From Escherichia coli (GTDB lineage Bacteria > Pseudomonadota > Gammaproteobacteria > Enterobacterales > Enterobacteriaceae): a stretch of DNA of 64,000 bases. This document shows, piece by piece, positions 1 to 47,216 of this stretch (its first letter is position 1; each line of letters opens with the position of its first letter). The position numbers and the translations under genes are program-made. Under the pieces are notes generated by a model. It had not been told where the DNA came from. It saw only the letters and a program-made list of their open reading frames with translations, and ran no database searches. The stretch lies in assembly GCF_050920415.1 (NCBI RefSeq), contig NZ_CP169309.1, one strand, 5' to 3'.

Positions 1-432
1 GCACGACCTGATGCCAGCGAACAAGAGTTACAAACAGCACTGGATAACGCGTGGGTCAGTGAGTTTCTACCGCTCCTGCCACAAGGCGTTGATACGCCTG
101 TTGGCGACCAGGCTGCCCGCCTTTCCGTAGGCCAGGCACAACGTGTGGCGGTGGCGCGTGCATTACTGAATCCCTGTTCGCTATTACTGTTGGATGAACC
201 CGCAGCAAGCCTTGATGCTCACAGTGAACAGCGCGTAATGGAGGCGCTGAATGCCGCCTCTCTGCGCCAGACAACGTTAATGGTCACCCACCAGTTAGAA
301 GATCTTGCTGACTGGGATGTCATTTGGGTAATGCAGGATGGTCAGATTATCGAGCAAGGACGTTACGCGGAATTAAGCGTGGCTGGTGGTCCTTTCGCCA
401 CATTGCTGGCCCATCGTCAGGAGGAGATTTAA
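1..432 (+). CDS. cydD: Cysteine/glutathione ABC exporter CydD, C-terminal part (5' end lies outside the window)
   Basis: Open frame from base 1 to the stop at 430-432; translation has an ABC signature-like LSVGQAQR and Walker B LLLLDEP; directly precedes cydC as in the cydDC operon. Confidence 0.9.
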   Translation, partial: ARPDASEQELQTALDNAWVSEFLPLLPQGVDTPVGDQAARLSVGQAQRVAVARALLNPCSLLLLDEPAASLDAHSEQRVMEALNAASLRQTTLMVTHQLEDLADWDVIWVMQDGQIIEQGRYAELSVAGGPFATLLAHRQEEI

Positions 433-2154
433 ATGCGCGCTTTGCTACCCTATCTGGCACTGTATAAACGTCATAAATGGATGTTAAGTCTTGGTATTGT
501 GCTGGCAATTGTCACGCTGCTCGCCAGTATCGGTCTGTTGACACTTTCCGGCTGGTTCCTCTCGGCCTCAGCGGTAGCGGGGGTTGCCGGACTGTACAGC
601 TTCAACTATATGCTACCCGCTGCGGGCGTGCGTGGTGCAGCAATCACCCGTACTGCCGGGCGCTATTTTGAACGTCTGGTAAGTCACGACGCGACTTTCC
701 GCGTGTTGCAGCATCTGCGCATTTACACCTTCAGCAAATTGCTACCCCTCTCCCCTGCCGGACTGGCGCGCTATCGTCAGGGCGAATTGCTCAACCGCGT
801 CGTGGCGGATGTTGATACGCTCGATCATCTTTACCTGCGCGTTATCTCGCCGCTGGTAGGCGCTTTTGTAGTGATTATGGTGGTGACTATCGGGTTAAGT
901 TTTCTTGATTTCACCCTCGCCTTTACGCTGGGTGGCATTATGTTACTGACGCTTTTCCTGATGCCACCGCTGTTTTATCGTGCGGGAAAAAGCACCGGGC
1001 AAAATCTGACTCATCTTCGCGGGCAGTATCGCCAACAACTGACAGCCTGGCTGCAAGGGCAAGCTGAGCTGACCATTTTTGGTGCCAGCGATCGTTATCG
1101 CACGCAATTAGAGAATACTGAAATTCAGTGGCTGGAAGCGCAACGCCGTCAATCTGAACTGACAGCTTTGTCGCAAGCAATAATGCTGTTAATTGGCGCG
1201 TTAGCGGTGATCCTGATGCTGTGGATGGCGTCTGGCGGCGTTGGTGGCAATACTCAACCAGGCGCGTTAATTGCCCTGTTTGTCTTCTGTGCGTTAGCCG
1301 CGTTTGAAGCACTGGCACCAGTAACGGGTGCATTTCAGCATCTGGGGCAAGTCATTGCCTCTGCCGTACGGATCACCGATTTAACGGATCAAAAACCTGA
1401 AGTCACCTTCCCTGATACCCAAACCCGTGTTGCCGATTGCGTTTCGCTGACGTTACGGGATGTTCAGTTCACTTATCCGGAGCAGTCCCAACAGGCACTT
1501 AAAGGGATTTCTCTTCAGGTAAACGCCGGAGAACATATGGCGATTCTCGGGCGAACCGGATGCGGTAAATCAACATTGTTACAACTGCTGACCCGCGCAT
1601 GGGACCCGCAACAGGGCGAGATTTTAATTAACGATAGCCCCATAGCCAGCCTGAACGAAGCAACTCTACGACAGACCATCAGCGTTGTGCCACAGCGAGT
1701 GCATCTGTTTAGCGCCACACTGCGTGATAATCTGTTACTCGCCTCGCCTGGCAGTAGTGATGAAGTTTTGGCGGAGATCTTGCGTCGAGTTGGTCTGGAG
1801 AAGCTGCTCGAGGATGCAGGTCTCAACAGTTGGTTAGGTGAAGGCGGACGCCAGCTCTCCGGTGGTGAACTGCGCCGTCTGGCTATCGCCCGTGCGCTGT
1901 TACATGATGCGCCACTGGTATTGCTGGATGAACCTACCGAAGGCTTAGATGCCACAACTGAAAGTCAGATCCTTGAATTACTTGCAGAAATGATGCGTGA
2001 GAAAACGGTGTTAATGGTCACCCATCGACTTCGCGGGCTCTCTCGTTTCCAGCAAATAATAGTGATGGACAACGGGCAAATTATTGAGCAAGGTACTCAC
2101 GCAGAACTGCTTGCCCGACAGGGGCGTTATTACCAGTTTAAGCAGGGTTTGTAA
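433..2154 (+). CDS. cydC: Cysteine/glutathione ABC exporter CydC (fused permease and ATPase)
   Basis: 573-aa ORF with N-terminal transmembrane region and C-terminal NBD (GRTGCGKST, LSGGE, LLLDEP); ATG immediately follows the cydD stop. Confidence 0.95.
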   Translation: MRALLPYLALYKRHKWMLSLGIVLAIVTLLASIGLLTLSGWFLSASAVAGVAGLYSFNYMLPAAGVRGAAITRTAGRYFERLVSHDATFRVLQHLRIYTFSKLLPLSPAGLARYRQGELLNRVVADVDTLDHLYLRVISPLVGAFVVIMVVTIGLSFLDFTLAFTLGGIMLLTLFLMPPLFYRAGKSTGQNLTHLRGQYRQQLTAWLQGQAELTIFGASDRYRTQLENTEIQWLEAQRRQSELTALSQAIMLLIGALAVILMLWMASGGVGGNTQPGALIALFVFCALAAFEALAPVTGAFQHLGQVIASAVRITDLTDQKPEVTFPDTQTRVADCVSLTLRDVQFTYPEQSQQALKGISLQVNAGEHMAILGRTGCGKSTLLQLLTRAWDPQQGEILINDSPIASLNEATLRQTISVVPQRVHLFSATLRDNLLLASPGSSDEVLAEILRRVGLEKLLEDAGLNSWLGEGGRQLSGGELRRLAIARALLHDAPLVLLDEPTEGLDATTESQILELLAEMMREKTVLMVTHRLRGLSRFQQIIVMDNGQIIEQGTHAELLARQGRYYQFKQGL

Positions 2155-2900: not shown

Positions 2901-3181
2901 ATGTTTTCGGCACATTTCTCCCCAGAGTGTTATAATTGCGGTCGCAGAGTTGGTTACGCTCATTACCCCGCTGCCGATAAGGAATTTTTCGCGTCAGGTA
3001 ACGCCCATCGTTTATCTCACCGCTCCCTTATACGTTGCGCTTTTGGTGCGGCTTAGCCGTGTGTTTTCGGAGTAATGTGCCGAACCTGTTTGTTGCGATT
3101 TAGCGCGCAAATCTTTACTTATTTACAGAACTTCGGCATTATCTTGCCGGTTCAAATTACGGTAGTGATACCCCAGAGGAT

Positions 3182-3403
<222 letters not shown>

Positions 3404-3442
3404 TTGTTTTACCGCCTGATGGGCGAAGAGAAAGAACGCGTA

Positions 3443-3474
3443 AAAGGTCGGTTTAACCGGCCTTTTTATTTTGT
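3443..3474 (+). terminator. Candidate rho-independent terminator downstream of infA
   Basis: Hairpin aaaaggtcgg-ttta-accggcctt followed by tttttatttt. Confidence 0.5.
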
Positions 3475-3577
3475 ACGAAGAACGTTGGAAGTATAAGTAC
3501 ATAACTTGTCTCGATGTAGATATACTGCACAACTTGTTTACAGTATGAGCAAACGAGAATTGTCAGTAAAATTCTTC

Positions 3578-3606
3578 TTGACCGTTTTACTCCAACTCCC
3601 TATAGT
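3578..3606 (+). promoter_or_regulatory. Candidate sigma-70 promoter for serW
   Basis: TTGACC (3578-3583), 17-bp spacer, TATAGT (3601-3606), then a GC-rich discriminator typical of stable-RNA promoters. Confidence 0.4.
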
Positions 3607-3649
3607 AGCGCCCCGTTGCCCCCCATGAGGTCAGGCAGCAAAACAATTT

Positions 3650-3737
3650 GGTGAGGTGTCCGAGTGGCTGAAGGAGCACGCCTGGAAAGTGTGTATACGG
3701 CAACGTATCGGGGGTTCGAATCCCCCCCTCACCGCCA
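3650..3737 (+). tRNA. serW: tRNA-Ser (anticodon GGA), 88 nt including CCA
   Basis: GGTGAGGTGTCCGAGTGGCTGAAGGAGCACGCCTGGAAAGTG...GGGGGTTCGAATCCCCCCCTCACCGCCA; acceptor stem ggtgagg/cctcacc, long variable arm, encoded CCA. Confidence 0.95.
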
Positions 3738-3750
3738 TATTTGAAGAAGA

Positions 3751-3777
3751 GCTCGTACGAAAGTACGGGCTTTTTTT
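3751..3777 (+). terminator. Rho-independent terminator after serW
   Basis: 8-bp stem gctcgtac/gtacgggc with GAAA tetraloop followed by T7. Confidence 0.7.
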
Positions 3778-3787
3778 CGCATTTTAT

Positions 3788-3867
3788 CTGCCTGTACGGC
3801 AGTGAACAAAATTACAAAGCATCAAAACCAGGGAATAGTTTTCTAAGCTGCCTGTACGGCAGTGAAC
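3788..3867. repeat. Two copies of a 20-bp direct repeat ctgcctgtacggcagtgaac (3788-3807 and 3848-3867), each holding a small hairpin
   Basis: Exact 20-bp identity read from the sequence, 60 bp centre to centre. Confidence 0.6.
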
Positions 3868-3926
3868 TCAAATACTACACGTCTAGCCCGTTGTTAATAA
3901 AGCAAAACCATCTCATTTTCCTGCTG

Positions 3927-3945
3927 CCCCCCCCCCCCCCCCCCC
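3927..3945. repeat. Homopolymeric C19 tract followed by T6
   Basis: 19 consecutive C at 3927-3945, then tttttt. Confidence 0.9.
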
Positions 3946-4030
3946 TTTTTTATCCTTACCTTTCAGCTGCACTACTTATCAACAACTTACCATCATCATC
4001 AAAAAAAGGGTCTGAACCTCCTCCACCCCA

Positions 4031-4068
4031 TAAATAAAAAGTCCGTAACCTCTTTCGAGATTACGGAC
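4031..4068 (-). terminator. Candidate rho-independent terminator of clpA
   Basis: Inverted repeat gtccgtaa...ttacggac, followed on the minus strand by tttttattta, just 3' of the clpA stop. Confidence 0.6.
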
Positions 4069-4093
4069 TTCACCAACCTACCTAACAATTAGA

Positions 4094-6370
4094 TTAATGC
4101 GCTGCTTCCGCCTTGTGCTTTTGTGCACTCTGGAATCCGTAAGTCAGCTCATTTTTCTCTTTATCCAGCGCAACCGTCACCTGACCGCCGTCCACCAGCG
4201 AACCAAACAACAGTTCGTTGGCGAGCGGTTTTTTCAGGTTGTCCTGGATGACACGCGCCATCGGACGTGCGCCCATCGCCCGGTCGTAACCTTTCTCGGC
4301 CAGCCAGTTACGCGCTTCCTGGCTCACTTCCAGAGAAACACCTTTCTGATCCAACTGAACCTGCAACTCGACGATGAACTTATCCACCACCTGATGGATC
4401 ACGTCGGTGGAGAGATGATCGAACCAGATAATGTTGTCGAGACGGTTACGGAATTCCGGTGTAAAGATCTTCTTGATCTCTTCCATCGCATCGGTGCTGT
4501 TATCCTGATGGATAAGACCAATCGATTTACGCTCAGTTTCCCGTACCCCGGCATTAGTGGTCATCACCAGCACCACGTTACGGAAGTCCGCTTTGCGTCC
4601 GTTGTTATCGGTCAGCGTACCGTTGTCCATCACCTGCAACAGAATATTGAACACGTCCGGGTGCGCTTTCTCGATTTCGTCCAGCAGCAGCACCGCATGA
4701 GGATGCTTGATGACCGCATCAGTCAGCAAACCGCCCTGATCAAAACCAACGTATCCCGGAGGCGCACCAATCAGACGGCTGACGGTATGGCGTTCCATAT
4801 ACTCGGACATATCAAAGCGTAACAGTTCAATGCCCAGAGCTTTGGAAAGCTGCACCGTCACCTCGGTTTTCCCGACCCCGGTAGGACCAGCAAACAGGAA
4901 CGAACCGACTGGTTTATGTTCGTGACCTAAACCTGCACGCGCCATCTTAATGGCTTCAGTCAGCGCCTCAATGGCTTTATCCTGACCGAAGACCAGCATT
5001 TTCAGGCGATCGCTGAGGTTTTTCAGGGTATCGCGGTCACTCTGAGAAACACTCTTCTCTGGAATGCGCGCAATACGGGCCACCACGGACTCAATATCCG
5101 CCACATTAACGGTTTTCTTGCGTTTGCTTACCGGCATCAGGCGTGCGCGAGCGCCCGCTTCGTCGATAACGTCAATAGCTTTATCCGGCAGATGACGATC
5201 GTTAATGTATTTCACCGCCAGCTCCACCGCAGCACGCACCGCTTTCGCGGTATAACGCACGTCGTGGTGCGCTTCATACTTCGGTTTCAGGCCATTGATG
5301 ATTTGAACAGTTTCTTCGATCGACGGTTCAGTAATATCAATTTTCTGGAAGCGACGCGCCAGAGCACGGTCTTTCTCGAAAATGTTGCTGAACTCCTGAT
5401 AGGTTGTCGAACCAATTACGCGAATTTTACCGCTGGAGAGCAACGGTTTGATCAGGTTAGCCGCATCAACCTGACCACCAGAGGCTGCACCCGCACCGAT
5501 AATGGTGTGGATCTCATCAATAAACAGGATGCTGTTAGTGTCCTGCTCCAGCTGCTTGAGCAACGCTTTAAAACGTTTTTCAAAGTCGCCGCGATATTTT
5601 GTGCCCGCTAACAGAGAACCGATATCGAGAGAGTAAATCGTACAGTCAGCCATCACTTCCGGCACATCGCCCTGAACAATTCGCCAGGCAAGACCTTCCG
5701 CAATCGCGGTTTTGCCGACACCGGATTCCCCCACCAGCAGCGGGTTGTTTTTACGGCGACGGCAGAGAACCTGAATAGCACGCTCCAGCTCCTTCTCACG
5801 ACCAATCAGTGGGTCGATTCCGCCCACACGCGCAAGCTGATTCAGGTTCGTCGTGAAATTCTCCATACGTTCCTCCCCACCAGCTTGTTCTTCGCTGTTT
5901 GGCTGGCTGCCAGGATCAGAAGACTGTGTCGGCTCGTCTTTACGCGTGCCATGAGAGATAAAGTTCACCACATCGAGACGGCTGACTTCATGTTTGCGCA
6001 ACAGATATGCCGCCTGCGACTCCTGTTCGCTAAAGATAGCGACCAGAACGTTTGCACCGGTAACCTCATTGCGACCGGAGGACTGGACATGGAAGACCGC
6101 ACGTTGCAGTACACGCTGAAAACTCAGCGTTGGCTGTGTGTCGCGCTCCTCTTCACTGGCAGGCAGAACGGGTGTGGTTTGTTCAATAAAGGCTTCCAGT
6201 TCCTGACGGAGCGCAACCAAATCCACAGAACACGCTTCCAGCGCCTCCCGGGCAGATGGGTTACTGAGCAGCGCCAGTAACAAGTGCTCGACGGTCATAA
6301 ACTCATGACGGTGCTCGCGCGCTCTGGCGAAAGCCATATTTAAACTGAGTTCCAGTTCTTGATTGAGCAT
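4094..6370 (-). CDS. clpA: ATP-dependent Clp protease ATP-binding subunit ClpA
   Basis: ORF matches ClpA ([31 protein letters not shown]..., two AAA+ modules GESGVGKT and GPTGVGKT); start trimmed to ATG at 6368-6370, preceded by a gggagg SD. Confidence 0.97.
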
Positions 6371-7340: not shown

Positions 7341-9287
7341 TTACTCTCGTGCCAGAGCATCTACTGGATCCAGTCGTGCCGCATTTCGTGCGGGTAACCA
7401 GCCAAATAAAATCCCGGTGACCGTCGAGCAGAGAAACGCCAGCAGCAGCGCCAACGGTGAAAAACCAATCTCCCAGCCGGGTAAGAAAAGCTGCAAGGTG
7501 AAAGCAATTAACAGTGACAGTGTTATTCCCAACGCGCCACCGACCAGGCAAACCAGTACGGCTTCGATCAGAAACTGTTGCAAAACATCGCTTGCTCGCG
7601 CACCTACAGCCATGCGAATGCCAATTTCCCGCGTCCGCTCGGTCACTGATACCAGCATAATATTCATTACACCAATACCGCCCACCACCAGCGAAATCAC
7701 CGCCACCAGCGTCAGAAACAGTTGTAAAGTACGTGTGGTCTTTTCAACGGTTTTCAAGACGCCGTCCATGTTCCAGGTAAAGAAATCCTTCTTACCGTGG
7801 CGCAGTGAAAGTAAACGCGTGAGTTGCTGTTCCGCCTCGGCGCTGTCAAAGCCCTCTTTCACCCTGACAGTAATAGAGTTCAGCCACGACTGGCCCATAA
7901 CTCTCCCGGACATCGTGCTGTAAGGTAACCACACGCGCAGCACTTTACTACTGCCAAACATCGACTGTTTTTCCTCTGCCACGCCGATGACTCTCGCTGG
8001 CATATTACCAACCAAGATAACCTCGCCAACCACATTTGCTTTATGGGGGAAAAGCTGACGGCGAGTATTACTGTCGAGAACCACGACTTGCGCACGGCCA
8101 TTCAGCTGTTCCTGATTAAAGGTGTTCCCTTCACTGAAGGTCATGCCATAGACATTAAAATAATCGCCGCTCACGCCATTGGCACTGGCAGCCACATCGA
8201 CATTGTTATAACGCAGGCGCAGGTTTTGCGAGACGGCAGGTGTGGCTGAGGCGACCCACGGTTGTTTTTGGATGGCGATTAAGTCGTCGTACTTCAGCGC
8301 CTGCTGATATTGCGGATCGTCATCGCCAAAATCTTTCCCGGGATAGACATCAATAGTATTCGTACCAATAGAACGAATATCCGCCAGCACCATTTGTTTG
8401 GCGGCGTCGCCGACCACGACAATGGAAACCACCGACGCAATACCGATAATAATCCCCAGCATGGTCAGTAAAGTACGCATTTTATTCGCTGCCAGCGCCC
8501 GCCACGCCATCGTCAGCGCCTCGTTAAAACCGCTGACAAACTGCCGCCAGCCAGACGCCGTGTTGATAACAGGCTCCGTCCCGCCAGCAACATTCACTTT
8601 TTCAATGGCGGGAGGATTGCGCACAATTTCGCCGTCGCGAATTTCGATCACCCGCTCGGCCTGAGCAGCGACCTGCGGATCGTGGGTAACGATAATCACC
8701 GTATGCCCGCGATCGCGCAGCTGATGCAGGATCGCCATCACCTCTTCGCCAGAATGACTGTCCAGTGCGCCGGTTGGTTCATCGGCAAGAATTACCTGAC
8801 CGCCGTTCATCAATGCCCGCGCGATGCTGACGCGCTGTTGCTGACCACCCGAAAGCTGTGCCGGGTAATACTCTGTACGGTCTTCCAGTCCCAGTCGTTG
8901 CAGTAACTCCTGGGCGCGAAGCAACCGCTGTTTCCGCTCAAGACCGGCATAGACGGCGGGTACTTCAACGTTCTGCTCGGCGGTTAAATGTGAAAGCAAA
9001 TGGTAACGCTGGAAAATAAAGCCGAAGTGTTCGCGACGCAGTTGCGCCAGCGCATCGGCGTCCAGCATGGCAACATCCTGACCGGCGACGCGATAGGTGC
9101 CGCTGGTGGCCTTATCCAGGCAGCCGAGAATATTCATCAGGGTCGATTTACCGGAACCCGAAGCGCCGACAATCGCCACCATCTCACCAGCATAAATATC
9201 GAGGGTGATGCCCTTCAGCACCTCAACTTGCTCATCACCGGCAGGATAGCTGCGACGAATATCCTTTAATTCGAGCAAGGGCGTCAT
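7341..9287 (-). CDS. macB: Macrolide export ABC transporter MacB (ATPase/permease)
   Basis: 648-aa ORF with N-terminal NBD ([28 protein letters not shown]) and C-terminal FtsX-like permease. Confidence 0.95.
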
Positions 9288-10399
9288 TGTGCAGCTCCTG
9301 GTTTGGCCTCACCAATCACCACTTCATCGCCCGCTTCCAGCCCTTTGACAATCTCAACATCGGTATCGTTGCGTGCGCCAATCGTCACTTCACGCTCGCG
9401 TGTTTCACCATTACGCAACAATTTGACTTTATAACGATTATCGCCAACCGGATCGCCTAACGCCGACAGAGGGATCGTCAGCACATTTTTCACATCGGTG
9501 AGCTGAATATGCACTTGCGCGGTCATATCCAGCCGCAGCAAACCATTGGGGTTTGGAACTTCAAAACGGGCGTAATAGAAAATAGCGTCATTAACCTTTT
9601 CCGGCGTCGGTAGCACATCCTTGATTTGCCCCTCGTAGCGCGTCAGCGGATCGCCAAGCACTGTAAACCAGGTTTTTTGCCCCGGCTTCAGGTGAATTAC
9701 ATCCGCTTCAGAAACCTGCGCTTTTACCAGCATGGTACTCATATCTGCCAGCGTCAAAATGTTCGGTGCTTGTTGTGCGGCAATCACCGTCTGACCTTGC
9801 AGAGTGGTGATTTGCGTGACTTCCCCAGCCATCGGGGCAACGATGCGGGTGTAATCGAGATTGGTTTTAGCCGTATCGAGAGAGGCCTGATTGCGCTTTA
9901 TTTGCGCGTCAATGGTGCCAATTTGTGCCTGTTTCACAGCCATCTCCGTCGCGGCGGTGTCGAGATCCTGTTGTGAAACAGCCTGCGTTTGGGCCAGACG
10001 TTGCTGACGTGAATACGTCACCCGTGCCAGTTTCAGTTCCGCTTCCGCCTGCTGACGCTGCGCGCGCAACTCCATCAACGTTGCTTCCACCTCCTTGATC
10101 TGGTTTTCAGCCTGTTCAGGATCAATAACACCTAAAAGTTGGTCTTTTTTTACTTTATCGCCAATCGCCACCGACAGCGTTTTCAACTGACCGCTGACCT
10201 GTGCACCCACGTCAACCTTACGCAGCGCGTCCAGCTTTCCGGTCGCCAGCACGCTTTGCTGTAAATCGCCTGGACGCACAATCAGCGTCTGATAAGTCGG
10301 CACGGGTGCGTTAAGAATTCTCCATAACGTAATCAGCCCGGCAATGACTATCACCAGCGCAATAACGTAACGCTTCTTCACGGTTTTCCGCTTTTTCAT
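9284..10399 (-). CDS. macA: Macrolide efflux periplasmic adaptor MacA
   Basis: 371-aa membrane-fusion protein [18 protein letters not shown]...; 4-bp overlap with the macB start. Confidence 0.95.
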
Positions 10400-10513: not shown

Positions 10514-11506
10514 ATGGTGAAATCGACGTTATGTATAACCATTGATTTCATGAATATGTCGCAGCTAACTGAACGGACCTTTACGCCATCTGACTCTCTC
10601 AGCAGCCTGTCACTTTTTCTTAGTCTGGCACGTGGACAGTGTCGGCCGGGTAAATTTTGGCATCGCCGTAGTTTTCGCCAGAAATTTTTGCTGCGCTCGT
10701 TGATTATGCCGCGTTTAAGCGTTGAGTGGATGAACGAACTTTCCCACTGGCCTAATCTCCATGTGTTGTTAACGCGCCAGCCGCGACTGCCTGTGCGTCT
10801 GCATCGCCCTTACCTTGCGGCGAATCTTAGCCGCAAGCAATTGCTGGAGGCGTTACGTTACCATTATGCATTGCTCCGTGCCTGCATGTCGGCAGAAGAA
10901 TTCAGCTTATATTTGAATACTCCCGGGCTGCAACTGGCGAAGCTGGAAGGCAAAAACGGCGAGCAGTTCACGCTTGAGCTGACCATGATGATCTCAATGG
11001 ATAAAGAAGGTGACAGCACAATCCTGTTCCGCAACTGCGAAGGTATTCCTCTGGCAGAGATCACCTTTACTCTGTGTGAATACCAGGGGAAAAGAACAAT
11101 GTTTATTGGCGGGCTGCAAGGTGCGAAATGGGAAATTCCACATCAGGAAATCCAGAATGCGACGAAAGCCTGCCACGGGCTATTTCCCAAACGTCTCGTG
11201 ATGGAAGCGGCCTGTCTGTTTGCCCAACGTTTGCAGGTAGAGCAGATCATTGCCGTCAGCAATGAAACGCATATTTACCGCAGCCTGCGTTATCGCGATA
11301 AAGAAGGCAAGATCCATGCAGATTACAACGCTTTCTGGGAGTCGGTTGGCGGCGTATGTGATGCTGAACGCCATTACCGCCTTCCGGCACAGATAGCACG
11401 AAAAGAGATTGCCGAAATCGCCAGTAAAAAACGGGCTGAATACCGTCGGCGCTATGAGATGCTCGACGCTATTCAGCCACAAATGGCCACGATGTTTCGC
11501 GGTTAA
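10514..11506 (+). CDS. ybjX: DUF535/VirK-family protein YbjX
   Basis: 330-aa ORF in the position and at the length recalled for ybjX; exact start not verified. Confidence 0.8.
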   Translation: MVKSTLCITIDFMNMSQLTERTFTPSDSLSSLSLFLSLARGQCRPGKFWHRRSFRQKFLLRSLIMPRLSVEWMNELSHWPNLHVLLTRQPRLPVRLHRPYLAANLSRKQLLEALRYHYALLRACMSAEEFSLYLNTPGLQLAKLEGKNGEQFTLELTMMISMDKEGDSTILFRNCEGIPLAEITFTLCEYQGKRTMFIGGLQGAKWEIPHQEIQNATKACHGLFPKRLVMEAACLFAQRLQVEQIIAVSNETHIYRSLRYRDKEGKIHADYNAFWESVGGVCDAERHYRLPAQIARKEIAEIASKKRAEYRRRYEMLDAIQPQMATMFRG

Positions 11507-34192: not shown

Positions 34193-35038
34193 TCAGCCAC
34201 GTCTTGCACGCTGGATGTCGCGTATCCGCTGTTTTTCTGCACGCGCCATCAGATACCAGGCGATAAATCCGACAATTCCGACCGCGCCGAGGATCAATGT
34301 TGCCAGGGCGTTGATTTCCGGATTCACCCCCATCCGCACGCTGGAGAAGACCAGCATCGGTAACGTGGTGGCTCCTGGCCCGGAAACAAAGCTGGCAATC
34401 ACCAGATCGTCGAGCGACAGAGTAAAAGCCAGTAACCAGCCAGAAATGATCGCGGGCATGATCATCGGTAGCGTAATGACGAAAAACACTTTCAGCGGCG
34501 TCGCACCGAGATCCATCGCTGCTTCTTCAATGGAACGGTCCAGCTCCCGCAGACGCGACGAAATAACGACTGCCACATAAGCCGTACAGAAAGTGACATG
34601 CGCCAGCCAGATGGTGAGCATGCCTCGCTCCGCAGGCCAGCCGATGGCATGTGCAAGTGCGACAAATAACAACAACAGCGACAAGCCCGTGATGACATCT
34701 GGCATCACCAGCGGCGCGGTGATCATAAAGGCAAAACCATTTGATCCGCGAAACCTGCCAAAGCGCACCAGCACGACCGCCGCAATCGTCCCGAGGATCG
34801 CCGCCGCCGTTGCCGCACAGGCAGCTATTGTCAGGCTTAAACCAACCGCGCTCATCATCGCGTCATCACGCAGTAATTCGCCATACCAGCGCGTTGACCA
34901 GCCCGCCCACACCGTCACCAGCTTCGAGCTGTTAAACGAATAGATAACCAGCATCAGCATTGGCGCGTAGAGAAAGGTGAAGCCCAACAGCAAAATCACA
35001 ATTCGCCAGGGCGAACGAACCACCGGTAAATTATTCAT
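34193..35038 (-). CDS. potI: Putrescine ABC transporter permease PotI
   Basis: 281 aa from MNNLPVVRSPWRIVILLLGF...; start overlaps the potH stop (ATGA). Confidence 0.95.
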   Translation of the reverse strand: MNNLPVVRSPWRIVILLLGFTFLYAPMLMLVIYSFNSSKLVTVWAGWSTRWYGELLRDDAMMSAVGLSLTIAACAATAAAILGTIAAVVLVRFGRFRGSNGFAFMITAPLVMPDVITGLSLLLLFVALAHAIGWPAERGMLTIWLAHVTFCTAYVAVVISSRLRELDRSIEEAAMDLGATPLKVFFVITLPMIMPAIISGWLLAFTLSLDDLVIASFVSGPGATTLPMLVFSSVRMGVNPEINALATLILGAVGIVGFIAWYLMARAEKQRIRDIQRARRG

Positions 35039-35988
35039 CCGTGTTCTCCCACGCTTTTTTGCTGATGCTTGTGGAACCACATTATCGGCACAATTAGCAG
35101 CAACAACATGATGATCGCCACTGCCGAGGCCACCGGCCAGTCACGGTTGTTAAAGAACTCCTGCCACAGCACGCGTCCGATCATGATGCTATCCGGACCG
35201 CCGAGCAGCTCCGGGATTACAAACTCGCCCACAGCCGGGATAAACACCAGCATCGATCCGGCAATAATCCCGCCTTTGGTCAGCGGCACGATCACAGTAA
35301 AGAACGTTTTCAGCGGTCGTGCACCGAGATCCAGTGCCGCTTCCACCAGCGAATAATCAATACGAATCAACGCGGTATAAATCGGCAGCACCATAAACGG
35401 CACGTAGGCGTAAACAATGCCAATATAAACGGCCAGGTTGGTATGCAGAATGGTCAGCGGCTGGTCGATAACCCCCAGCCACAGCAGAAAATTATTCAGC
35501 ACGCCGTTATTTTTTAATATTCCCATCCAGGCATAAACGCGGATCAGAAACGAGGTCCACGACGGCAGGATCACCAGCAGCAATAAGATATTGCGGGTCG
35601 AAGGCTTACTGTGCGCCACCGCCCACGCCAGCGGATAGCCGATCAGTAAACAACAAATTGTCGAAATCGCCGCTACCTGTAACGACTGGAGATATGCATC
35701 GAAATAGAGCGGATCGTCAGTCAGTTGCAGGAAATTACCAAGATTGAGGGTGATGGAAAGTTGCCCGTCAGCCCACTCCATCAGTTCGGTATAAGGTGGA
35801 ATAGCGCGCGCCATCTCCGCCAGACTTATTTTAAAGACGATCAGAAATGGCAGCAGAAACAGCAAGATCAACCAGATATACGGCAACGCAATGACCAGTT
35901 TGCGCCCATGCTTCATTTGCAGCTGCGACAACCACAGCTTAAATCCGCCCGGCGGTTTCGACTGGGCAGCAGGTTCAAGTGTACTCAT
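35035..35988 (-). CDS. potH: Putrescine ABC transporter permease PotH
   Basis: 317-aa permease MSTLEPAAQSKPPGGFKLWLSQ... Confidence 0.95.
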   Translation of the reverse strand: MSTLEPAAQSKPPGGFKLWLSQLQMKHGRKLVIALPYIWLILLFLLPFLIVFKISLAEMARAIPPYTELMEWADGQLSITLNLGNFLQLTDDPLYFDAYLQSLQVAAISTICCLLIGYPLAWAVAHSKPSTRNILLLLVILPSWTSFLIRVYAWMGILKNNGVLNNFLLWLGVIDQPLTILHTNLAVYIGIVYAYVPFMVLPIYTALIRIDYSLVEAALDLGARPLKTFFTVIVPLTKGGIIAGSMLVFIPAVGEFVIPELLGGPDSIMIGRVLWQEFFNNRDWPVASAVAIIMLLLLIVPIMWFHKHQQKSVGEHG

Positions 35989-40215: not shown

Positions 40216-40938
40216 TTAGCGCGTCGCCCAACCCTGTTTGTGCAAATAATCCAGAATAAATGGGCGGCTTTCTTTAATGATTGTTCGGCGGATATGATCG
40301 CTCCAGGTATCCCTGCGATTATTGCTGCCACGGGTGAGGTAATATTCCGCCAGTTGTTCGTCATACTGCGCCAGTGCGTCTTTATCCAGCGGTTGATAGC
40401 TGTTTTCGTGCACCAAAATGGAAGCCGGTAAACGCGGCTTAAGATCTGGATTATCCGCAGGCCAGCCAAGGCACAGCCCAAACAGCGGCAGAACATGCTG
40501 CGGTAATTTCAGCAGTTCCGTCACCGCTTCAATATTATTGCGCAGGCCGCCGATATATACCCCGCCCAATCCCAGCGATTCCGCTGCGGTTAACGCATTC
40601 TGCGCCATCATTGCCGTATCAACGACACCGAGCAACAGTTGTTCCGCCAGGCCAAGTTGTGCATCCGGACAGATCTGTAAATGGCGGTTAAAGTCGGCAC
40701 AGAACACCCAAAACTCCGCCGCTTTCGCTACGTGTTTTTGCCCGCCGGTCAGCGTCACCAGTTCATCACGTAACGCTTTGTCGGTAATGCGAATAATGCT
40801 ACTGCACTGCAAAAAACTGGAACTGGACGTCGCACGGGCGCTGTTAATAATCGCCTCACGCTGCGCTTCGGAAATGGGTTCATCAGTGAAATGGCGAATG
40901 GAGCGATGGCCACAAATAAGTTCAATGGTTGGCGTCAT
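40216..40938 (-). CDS. nfsA: Oxygen-insensitive NADPH nitroreductase NfsA
   Basis: 240-aa ORF MTPTIELICGHRSIRHFTDEPISEAQREAIINSARATSSSSFLQ... Confidence 0.96.
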   Translation of the reverse strand: MTPTIELICGHRSIRHFTDEPISEAQREAIINSARATSSSSFLQCSSIIRITDKALRDELVTLTGGQKHVAKAAEFWVFCADFNRHLQICPDAQLGLAEQLLLGVVDTAMMAQNALTAAESLGLGGVYIGGLRNNIEAVTELLKLPQHVLPLFGLCLGWPADNPDLKPRLPASILVHENSYQPLDKDALAQYDEQLAEYYLTRGSNNRRDTWSDHIRRTIIKESRPFILDYLHKQGWATR

Positions 40939-44782: not shown

Positions 44783-45991
44783 ATGACCGTAAATTCTTCA
44801 CGTAATGCATTGAAACGCCGAACCTGGGCGCTGTTTATGTTCTTCTTTTTGCCGGGCCTGTTAATGGCGTCCTGGGCAACTCGTACACCTGCTATCCGCG
44901 ATATTCTTTCTGTTTCGATCGCTGAAATGGGCGGAGTCCTCTTTGGTCTGTCGATCGGTTCAATGAGCGGTATTCTCTGCTCGGCGTGGTTAGTGAAACG
45001 CTTTGGGACGCGTAATGTCATCCTGGTCACGATGTCCTGCGCATTGCTCGGGATGATGATATTAAGCCTGGCGCTCTGGCTGACATCGCCCGTGCTCTTT
45101 GCCGTTGGTCTCGGCGTCTTTGGGGCTAGTTTTGGTTCTGCAGAGGTGGCGATAAACGTTGAGGGTGCCGCCGTTGAGCGAGAAATGAATAAAACGGTTT
45201 TACCGATGATGCACGGTTTTTATAGCCTGGGCACGCTGGCAGGCGCTGGTGTCGGGATGGCACTGACGGCCTTTGGCGTTCCGGCAACGGTGCATATTTT
45301 ATTGGCGGCACTGGTAGGCATCGCGCCTATTTATATTGCTATTCAGGCAATACCTGACGGTACTGGCAAAAATGCTGCCGATGGCACGCAGCATGGCGAA
45401 AAAGGTGTACCTTTTTATCGCGATATCCAGTTGCTGCTGATTGGTGTCGTGGTTCTGGCGATGGCCTTTGCCGAAGGTTCTGCCAACGACTGGTTACCCT
45501 TATTAATGGTTGACGGTCACGGTTTTAGCCCCACTTCCGGCTCGCTGATTTATGCCGGTTTTACCCTGGGGATGACCGTTGGACGCTTCACCGGCGGTTG
45601 GTTCATCGACCGTTACAGTCGCGTTGCCGTGGTACGGACCAGTGCACTAATGGGAGCGTTGGGTATTGGGCTGATTATTTTTGTCGATAGCGCCTGGGTC
45701 GCTGGGGTCTCTGTTGTACTTTGGGGACTGGGTGCCTCGCTGGGCTTCCCACTGACCATTTCTGCCGCCAGCGATACCGGCCCCGATGCACCGACCCGCG
45801 TCAGCGTGGTAGCAACGACCGGTTATCTGGCTTTCCTCGTCGGGCCGCCGCTGCTGGGCTATCTCGGCGAACATTATGGATTACGTAGTGCAATGCTGGT
45901 TGTACTGGCGCTGGTTATTCTTGCGGCTATTGTCGCGAAAGCCGTCGCCAAACCCAATACCAAAACGCAGACGGCGATGGAGAATAGTTGA
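44783..45991 (+). CDS. ybjJ: MFS transporter YbjJ
   Basis: 402-aa 12-TM-like ORF in the expected position. Confidence 0.9.
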
Positions 45992-46806
45992 TGAGCATTA
46001 AATTAATTGCGGTAGACATGGATGGTACTTTCTTAAGCGATCAAAAAACCTATAACCGTGAGCGGTTTATGGCTCAGTATCAGCAGATGAAAGCACAAGG
46101 CATTCGCTTTGTGGTCGCCAGCGGGAATCAATATTATCAGTTGATCTCTTTCTTCCCTGAAATTGCTAATGAAATTGCCTTTGTGGCAGAAAACGGCGGT
46201 TGGGTTGTAAGCGAAGGCAAAGATGTTTTTAATGGCGAGCTGTCGAAGGATGCGTTTGCTACTGTGGTGGAACATTTACTGACGCGCCCAGAAGTGGAAA
46301 TTATTGCCTGCGGAAAAAATAGCGCCTATACCCTCAAAAAATATGACGATGCCATGAAAACGGTGGCGGAAATGTATTATCACCGTCTGGAATACGTCGA
46401 TAACTTTGATAATTTAGAAGATATCTTCTTTAAGTTTGGCCTGAATCTTTCCGATGAACTGATACCACAAGTGCAAAAAGCATTACATGAGACCATCGGC
46501 GATATTATGGTGCCGGTCCACACCGGCAACGGCAGCATCGATCTGATTATCCCCGGCGTACATAAAGCGAATGGCCTGCGCCAACTTCAGAAATTATGGG
46601 GAATAGACGACAGCGAAGTGGTGGTCTTCGGCGATGGTGGTAACGATATTGAGATGCTGCGTCAGGCAGGCTTTAGTTTTGCGATGGAAAATGCCGGCAG
46701 CGCGGTCGTCGCAGCGGCAAAATACCGGGCAGGCTCCAATAATCATGAAGGTGTACTGGATGTGATCGATAAAGTTCTTAAACACGAAGCGCCTTTTGAT
46801 CAATAA
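45991..46806 (+). CDS. ybjI: HAD-superfamily (Cof-type) phosphatase YbjI
   Basis: 271 aa, HAD motif I LIAVDMDGT; ATG overlaps the ybjJ stop (TGATG). Confidence 0.9.
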   Translation: MSIKLIAVDMDGTFLSDQKTYNRERFMAQYQQMKAQGIRFVVASGNQYYQLISFFPEIANEIAFVAENGGWVVSEGKDVFNGELSKDAFATVVEHLLTRPEVEIIACGKNSAYTLKKYDDAMKTVAEMYYHRLEYVDNFDNLEDIFFKFGLNLSDELIPQVQKALHETIGDIMVPVHTGNGSIDLIIPGVHKANGLRQLQKLWGIDDSEVVVFGDGGNDIEMLRQAGFSFAMENAGSAVVAAAKYRAGSNNHEGVLDVIDKVLKHEAPFDQ

Positions 46807-46891: not shown

Positions 46892-47176
46892 ATGATTATG
46901 AGAAATTGTCTACTGTTGGGCGCGCTTTTAATGGGCTTTACTGGTGTGGCGATGGCGCAAAGTGTCACCGTCGATGTGCCGAGTGGATACAAAGTGGTTG
47001 TGGTCCCTGATTCAGTCAGCGTTCCACAAGCAGTCAGCGTCGCGACTGTGCCGCAAACCGTCTATGTGGCTCCTGCGCCAGCTCCGGCTTACCGCCCGCA
47101 TCCGTATGTTCGCCATCTTGCCAGCGTAGGTGAAGGGATGGTTATCGAACACCAGATTGATGACCATCACCATTAA
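46892..47176 (+). CDS. ybjH: Secreted small protein YbjH
   Basis: 94-aa ORF with signal peptide, Val/Pro-rich repeats and a C-terminal HHH. Confidence 0.8.
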   Translation: MIMRNCLLLGALLMGFTGVAMAQSVTVDVPSGYKVVVVPDSVSVPQAVSVATVPQTVYVAPAPAPAYRPHPYVRHLASVGEGMVIEHQIDDHHH

Positions 47177-47216
47177 TTTGAAAATGCCTGATTGCTTTGC
47201 GCAATCAGGAATTTTT

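Follow-up and report, generated by a model that had tools for sequence, protein, structure and literature searches.

Stop/start overlaps at six gene junctions in the cydD–gsiA segment of the Escherichia coli chromosome

Six pairs of neighboring genes in the studied segment of the E. coli chromosome overlap by 1, 4, or 17 nt. These junctions are very probably ordinary boundaries between genes of one operon, of the kind that is commonest in E. coli. At the five pairs with a distance of −4 or −1 nt, translational coupling by termination-reinitiation is probable, by analogy with other gene pairs that have been tested. The 17-nt overlap of ybjC and nfsA is probably a conserved operon junction as well, outside the range for which efficient reinitiation has been shown. 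For ybjQ-amiD and ybjJ-ybjI, the most likely explanation is merely co-expression in a lineage-specific operon.

The analyzed stretch of 64,000 nucleotides (below, the window) is the chromosome segment from cydD to gsiA in an orientation that is the reverse complement of that in K-12. The ends of the CDS were taken from the RefSeq annotation of NZ_CP169399.1 (strain MFDS1022581) and NZ_CM169999.1. NZ_CP169399.1 is 100% identical to the window except for two insertions that it carries, namely an integrase/primase island of about 10 kb adjoining a tRNA-Ser gene and an IS2 element. Every CDS in the window has a clean translation.

An earlier note on this DNA had listed six stop/start overlaps. The letters were re-read at each site, and they confirm the six overlaps where the note had placed them:

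9284-9287, minus strand: macA>macB, ATGA, 4 nt, shared by the macA stop and the macB start
24709-24712, minus strand: ybjQ>amiD, ATGA, 4 nt, shared by the ybjQ stop and the amiD start
30610-30614, plus strand: artQ>artM, TAATG, 1 nt, base 30612 being common to both genes
35035-35038, minus strand: potH>potI, ATGA, 4 nt, shared by the potH TGA and the potI ATG (TCAT on the plus strand)
40922-40938, minus strand: ybjC>nfsA, ATGACGCCAACCATTGA, 17 nt, out-of-frame, from the nfsA ATG to the ybjC TGA
45989-45993, plus strand: ybjJ>ybjI, TGATG, 1 nt, with TGA as the ybjJ stop

One detail of that list needs correction: the pair written there as amiD/ybjQ has ybjQ as the upstream gene and amiD as the downstream one. 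At the end of ybjJ, the TGATG sits inside TGATGA, i.e., two tandem in-frame ybjJ stops. The spacing is −4 or −1 in five of the six junctions, and ybjC/nfsA, at −17, lies outside the class of −8 to +6 nt.

Several further tight junctions of the window were absent from the earlier note. The spacing of gsiC and gsiD is +2, and there are three convergent 4-nt stop/stop overlaps: ybjX/ybjD (TTAA), ybjS/amiD (CTAA), and gstB/yliI (CTAA). In one more same-strand pair the stop directly abuts the start:

430..435, plus strand: cydD/cydC, TAAATG, distance 0

The most frequent distance between E. coli genes is −4, followed by −1, and 707 of 2,987 unidirectional pairs (24%) are spaced by −8 to +6 nt (Huber et al. 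2023, PMC10666635). Distances of exactly −4 or −1 occur in five of the 16 same-strand pairs of the window that are spaced within ±20 nt (binomial p = 7.7e-4 against uniform spacing). In the −8 to +6 class are eight of the 38 same-strand window pairs (21%), which does not differ from the genome-wide share (p = 0.85); an enrichment of the window in overlaps is thereby ruled out. The excess of −4 and −1 distances is real and non-random, yet it is a genome-wide property, and the window is typical of E. coli.

The observation itself is already known, since supplementary file 3 of Huber et al. 2023 (PMC10666635) catalogs all six pairs for K-12 at identical distances. The same source flags potH-potI (−4), artQ-artM (−1), and macA-macB (−4) as encoding complexes and flags ybjJ-ybjI (−1), ybjC-nfsA (−17), and ybjQ-amiD (−4) as "not" complex. 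It also gives a median distance of −1 for the ArtQ@ArtM COG pair. Efficient reinitiation has been shown for distances from −8 to +6 (ibid.), and the −17 of ybjC/nfsA falls outside this range.

The proposed mechanism is as follows. Each pair would be carried on one mRNA. At the five −4/−1 junctions, a ribosome ending the upstream gene would halt on the downstream AUG or within a nucleotide of it. There it may restart (termination-reinitiation), usually with the aid of a Shine-Dalgarno (SD) sequence that lies within the upstream gene, in its 3' end; restart by the terminating ribosome would thus tie the output of the downstream gene to translation of the upstream one. SD strength was assessed as the energy of the duplex with the 3' end of 16S rRNA. 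Four of the five −4/−1 junctions have a well-spaced SD-like motif inside the upstream gene, 6–7 nt from the ATG and with energies from −6.4 to −9.5 kcal/mol:

9295..9299, minus strand: SD-like AGGAG in the macA 3' end, before macB, −6.6 kcal/mol
30599..30603, plus strand: SD GGAGG in the artQ 3' end, before artM, −9.5 kcal/mol
35046..35050, minus strand: SD-like GGGAG in the potH 3' end, before potI, 7 nt from its ATG, −7.3 kcal/mol
45979..45983, plus strand: SD GGAGA in the ybjJ 3' end, before ybjI, −6.4 kcal/mol

At the fifth such junction, the best SD-like match of amiD is weak because of its 11-nt spacer. The nfsA gene is preceded only by a weak purine-rich AAGAG (−2.9 kcal/mol), and cydC has a strong SD, AGGAGG (−10.3 kcal/mol). 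The geometry of coupling that the earlier note proposed is thus borne out for the five −4/−1 junctions, four of them with an SD.

As for transcription, a simple consensus-match scan, which can miss promoters, detected no sigma70-like sites on the coding strand inside ybjQ or ybjJ. Two sites that may delimit the corresponding transcription units were noted outside these genes:

25114..25141, minus strand: promoter-like TTGACA-16-TAAACT upstream of ybjQ, a candidate ybjQ-amiD promoter from the consensus scan only
47187..47209, plus strand: strong terminator-like hairpin with a T-run after ybjH, the probable 3' end of a ybjJ-ybjI(-ybjH) unit

For macAB, potHI, and artQM, coupling would suit the production of matched amounts of the subunits of one transporter, and this stoichiometric production by itself suffices as a rationale in these three cases. 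The other three pairs are flagged "not" complex, and therefore this rationale is inapplicable to them.

We compared the junctions across genera for the five pairs other than macA/macB. The 1-nt overlap of artQ and artM is found in 43 of the 46 Enterobacterales loci with the junction in the flank (36 with TGATG and 7 with TAATG), and an SD of the GGAG/GGGG type before artM is kept across species. The −4 overlap of potH and potI is also present in Salmonella (L094) and Klebsiella (L095), both of which keep the SD-like motif as GGGAG or GGGGG. In the same two genera, the overlap of ybjC and nfsA is exactly 17 nt, with a near-identical sequence.

The pair ybjQ-amiD was followed over a wider range: a YbjQ scan with one genome per species yielded 80 loci. 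In 48 of them amiD follows ybjQ on the same strand, and in 43 of these 48 the genes overlap, 30 at −4 and 13 at −1. The −4 forms include GTGA (Mixta) and TTGA (two Pantoea). The amiD ATG is constant between the two forms, and it is the ybjQ stop that shifts by one codon. Both forms turn up inside the single genera Cedecea and Pantoea, and hence the switch has occurred repeatedly. The remaining five loci have spacers: +70 in two species of Pectobacterium, +49 in Brenneria, about +200 in Yersinia nurmii, and +1,819 in Serratia grimesii. Since spacers of 49–200 nt exist in some lineages, the overlap is not obligatory.

These data bear on the possibility that the overlaps arose passively, from the compactness of operons and the drift of gene ends, the downstream genes being translated mainly by fresh ribosomes at their own SD and hardly depending on upstream translation. 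The fact that the −4 and −1 forms differ solely in the upstream stop, with the downstream ATG and SD constant, agrees with this explanation, and so do the decent SDs at four junctions and the separation of ybjQ and amiD in Pectobacterium, Brenneria, and Yersinia. Moreover, among the native E. coli −4 pairs studied in two-reporter assays (hyfHI, astDB, ydbH/ynbE, menDH, and bioBF), bioBF showed de novo initiation despite its spacing (PMC6728339, PMC10666635, PMC12548453). However, the other four of these five pairs were coupled, and spacers of about 20 nt are described in the literature as abolishing coupling. Free drift also accords poorly with the fact that about 90% of species keep precisely −4 or −1, even through the toggling in Cedecea and Pantoea, and amiD lacks a well-spaced SD for de novo initiation. 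On balance we regard the passive explanation as unlikely. Maintenance of the overlap while its form toggles between −4 and −1 agrees with selection for close spacing, a point that has previously been made genome-wide.

Termination-reinitiation thus remains the preferred account of the five −4/−1 junctions. One conceivable signature of strict coupling was rejected, namely an RNA structure masking the amiD start. The start region from −30 to +30 folds with −20.6 kcal/mol, but the fold of the 91-nt region around the start is no better than that of shuffled sequences (z = −1.07; 28 of 200 shuffles equally good).

The earlier note went further and took the overlaps of ybjQ/amiD and ybjJ/ybjI, i.e., of genes with unrelated annotated functions, as a hint at functional association. 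Such a partnership could, for example, place YbjQ in peptidoglycan recycling or make YbjI the phosphatase of a metabolite whose export by YbjJ is controlled by RcdA. In its favor, both pairs are probably co-operonic and keep their overlap across several genera, and operon membership generally enriches for related function according to the literature. Both had in fact already been treated as operons: an operon table enters "amiD,ybjQ" as a single unit, and Shimada et al. (2012, PMC3535384) describe a "ybjJI operon" under repression by RcdA, a divergently encoded TetR regulator that binds at a palindromic box between rcdA and ybjJ. In the rcdA mutant, ybjJI is derepressed (ibid.).

Nevertheless, an overlap is poor evidence of association as such. 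Closely spaced gene pairs of E. coli show a 4.5-fold enrichment in complex subunits, and 69.6% of the pairs at −8 to +10 nt form no known complex (Huber et al. 2023, PMC10666635); both pairs in question are, as mentioned, among those flagged "not" complex. Co-conservation of ybjQ and amiD also fails beyond one lineage. Their adjacency is restricted to a part of Enterobacterales and coincides with the syntenic block artP-ybjP-ybjQ-amiD-ybjS. In Hafnia the two genes are rearranged, with amiD divergent; in Serratia grimesii the adjacency is interrupted; in Xenorhabdus and Budvicia there is no amiD within 4 kb of ybjQ. Outside Enterobacterales (Aeromonas, Pseudomonas, Zetaproteobacteria, and others), amiD is beside ybjQ in none of 27 loci, although YbjQ itself is 67–82% identical there. 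Nor was a recurring, tightly linked same-strand partner of ybjQ seen in 31 loci, as judged from ORF geometry, where many flanking ORFs look non-coding. Finally, the sequences point to different compartments for the two proteins, since YbjQ lacks a signal peptide whereas AmiD is exported as a lipoprotein; therefore a physical complex of the two is unlikely.

Outside this comparison, we noticed that adeIJK of Acinetobacter is flanked by YbjQ-family genes.

The history of ybjJ-ybjI is similar. The junction reads AGT TGA TGA in E. coli (−1), AAC GCA TGA in Salmonella (−4), and TAATG in Klebsiella and Citrobacter (−1). In these four genera ATGGAG before ybjI is invariant, and the order rcdA-ybjJ-ybjI of the window is kept in the other three. 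A YbjJ orthologue of 69% identity with the same mdfA-PAP2-deoR synteny, however, has neither ybjI nor rcdA nearby. More distant relatives of YbjJ were drawn from a search of representative sequences, where one of them, on a 1.4-kb contig, gave no context. At 46–53% identity, these relatives usually have a divergent TetR gene, and they lack ybjI; the genes that follow ybjJ are unrelated ones and encode an arabinosyltransferase, PEPCK, or a MerR protein. A TetR neighbor is present in three of the four informative distant contexts (L089, L090/L091, and L093, but not L087). According to these gene neighborhoods, the conserved core is the TetR gene together with the transporter gene, and the HAD phosphatase gene ybjI is a later addition, seen in core Enterobacteriaceae only.

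We consider a functional partnership in the two pairs, with the examples given above, rather improbable, and the inference of shared function from overlap is the part of the earlier interpretation that is not supported. A stricter variant has AmiD synthesis strictly slaved to YbjQ translation because the cytoplasmic UPF0145 pentamer YbjQ would serve a function connected with peptidoglycan turnover. It is suggested by the retention of −4/−1 spacing in about 90% of the Enterobacterales species with adjacent genes despite repeated switching and by the lack of a good amiD SD; we hold it to be quite doubtful. In parallel, RcdA-YbjJ-YbjI could be a dephosphorylate-and-export module. Co-expression in lineage-specific operons is still what we prefer for both pairs.

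It is extremely improbable that the overlaps are annotation artifacts of misplaced start codons. The annotated ATG of macB, amiD, artM, and nfsA is the earliest possible start of each ORF. The amiD ATG is in addition fixed by the conserved lipoprotein signal peptide and lipobox that open there (MRR/MKR, MxR...LAGC, with a hydrophobic core and a Cys at about residue 17), found in more than 40 species. Some latitude exists for the two other genes: in both E. coli and Klebsiella the potI ORF extends 42 nt further upstream, to a GTG, and the sole alternative start of ybjI is a TTG that immediately precedes its ATG. But in Salmonella the potI frame is closed by a TAA 30 nt before the ATG, and no alternative start lies between them; therefore potI starts at the ATG of ATGA, and the upstream GTG is ruled out. 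In the ybjI product the HAD motif DMDGT begins as early as residue 9. Besides, any upstream alternative would lengthen the overlap and never abolish it.

The six overlaps are a textbook feature of bacterial operons, and their significance beyond housekeeping is small. For two of the three odd pairs, data on the operon or its regulator had been published before. The residual value of the observation is that it points to ybjQ-amiD and ybjJ-ybjI as conserved, apparently coupled pairs, each with one poorly characterized protein, YbjQ or YbjJ. If the link of YbjQ to peptidoglycan turnover were true, it would be the first functional clue for a widespread uncharacterized family.

The junctions can be compared with four known systems. 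The closest are the gene pairs described for termination-reinitiation (Huber 2019, PMC6728339; Huber 2023, PMC10666635; review PMC12548453), with which the window pairs share ATGA, TGATG or TAATG, an SD within the upstream gene, and a probable operon context. They differ from the experimentally coupled pairs of these works in that all six lie outside the assayed set and that ybjC/nfsA is outside the −8 to +6 range. Compared with pairs of ABC-transporter and efflux-pump subunits of matched stoichiometry, three of the six pairs fit, namely PotH/PotI, ArtQ/ArtM, and MacA/MacB. The third system is the TetR-regulated divergent transporter unit rcdA/ybjJI. The window likewise has a divergent TetR-family gene adjoining ybjJ, as do the three other genera and the distant contexts L089, L090, and L093, and it differs from the rcdA-ybjJ core of the distant relatives in having ybjI, which was seen solely in core Enterobacteriaceae. 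The fourth is the SoxS-regulated ybjC-nfsA transcription unit. According to PMC11936445 and PMC10953011 (citing Paterson et al. 2002), the nfsA operon has ybjC as its upstream gene, and its promoter belongs to class I of the SoxS promoters; the window shares with this unit the gene pair and the common promoter.

The ybjJ/ybjI junction (45989-45994, plus strand) reads TGATGA, i.e., it holds two successive in-frame ybjJ stops with the ybjI ATG between them. In Salmonella a sense codon, GCA, occupies the position of the first ybjJ stop, and the junction is therefore of the -4 form (ATGA overlap) instead of the -1 form (TGATG or TAATG overlap), with ybjI unaltered. The ybjQ/amiD alignments read ...CGC TGA TGA in the -1 forms and ...CGC CGA TGA in the -4 forms, which suggests, as far as can be read from an alignment, that a one-base CGA/TGA change distinguishes them. 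The earlier note listed stop/start overlaps at several operon junctions; one junction absent from its list is likely to be coupled as well:

430-435, plus strand: cydD stop and cydC start (TAAATG), abutting with zero spacer

This junction is preceded by a strong AGGAGG Shine-Dalgarno sequence (-10.3 kcal/mol).

YbjJ is also found without YbjI. An orthologue with 69% identity (GCA_020523985.1, positions 3001-4206 of its locus) lies within a conserved mdfA-PAP2-deoR neighbourhood and has a TonB-dependent receptor on the opposite flank; both ybjI and the regulator gene rcdA are missing from this neighbourhood. The YbjJ gene call in K. pneumoniae CP178564.1 is 454 aa long, compared with 402-403 aa elsewhere, and its start is probably over-extended in the record. 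Downstream of ybjI in the window lies one more gene:

46892-47176, plus strand: ybjH, 94 aa, without a Pfam family

It begins 85 nt after ybjI, ahead of a strong terminator (47187-47209). The ybjI-mdfA interval of Salmonella, Klebsiella and Citrobacter lacks this gene.

The AmiD homologues of Yersinia nurmii (MKPWFWMLFIMPLVQFHALGA...) and Erwinia persicina (MRPVAVIRPLLVLLAVFIYTS...) have no recognisable lipobox in the N-terminal region. Because of this, their sequences suggest a soluble periplasmic or otherwise anchored form of AmiD in these two species.

According to the window annotation and sequence, 4-nt stop/stop overlaps occur in three of the ten convergent CDS-CDS pairs:

11503-11506, convergent: ybjX/ybjD stop/stop overlap, TTAA
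23882-23885, convergent: ybjS/amiD stop/stop overlap, CTAA
52267-52270, convergent: gstB/yliI stop/stop overlap, CTAA

Thus the ybjQ-amiD transcript must end within the antisense strand of ybjS, and vice versa for ybjS. In Klebsiella gstB and yliI are separated by 2 nt, in contrast to the overlap in the window.

On the other side of ybjQ the window carries an ORF of restricted distribution:

25242-27026, minus strand: pentapeptide-repeat ORF, 594 aa, between ybjQ and ybjP

Its Pfam pentapeptide matches score under the gathering cut-offs. The ORF is present in none of the 80 species-representative YbjQ loci, including those of E. coli and E. albertii. Of 5,426 E. coli genomes, just 543 carry it. 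Two strongly divergent alleles occur among these 543 genomes: 18 genomes show at least 95% identity and 525 show 80-90% (about 81% in the listed examples).

NZ_CP169399.1 (E. coli strain MFDS1022581) is the sole record with 100% identity to the window, from which it differs by two insertions:

window ~3737-4094: integrase/primase/Icd-like island of ~10 kb, adjoining tRNA-Ser (serW)
window ~25240-27030: IS2 in the pentapeptide gene

The latter disrupts the pentapeptide-repeat ORF in an otherwise identical record. Most other E. coli genomes have ~98% identity to the window over its region.
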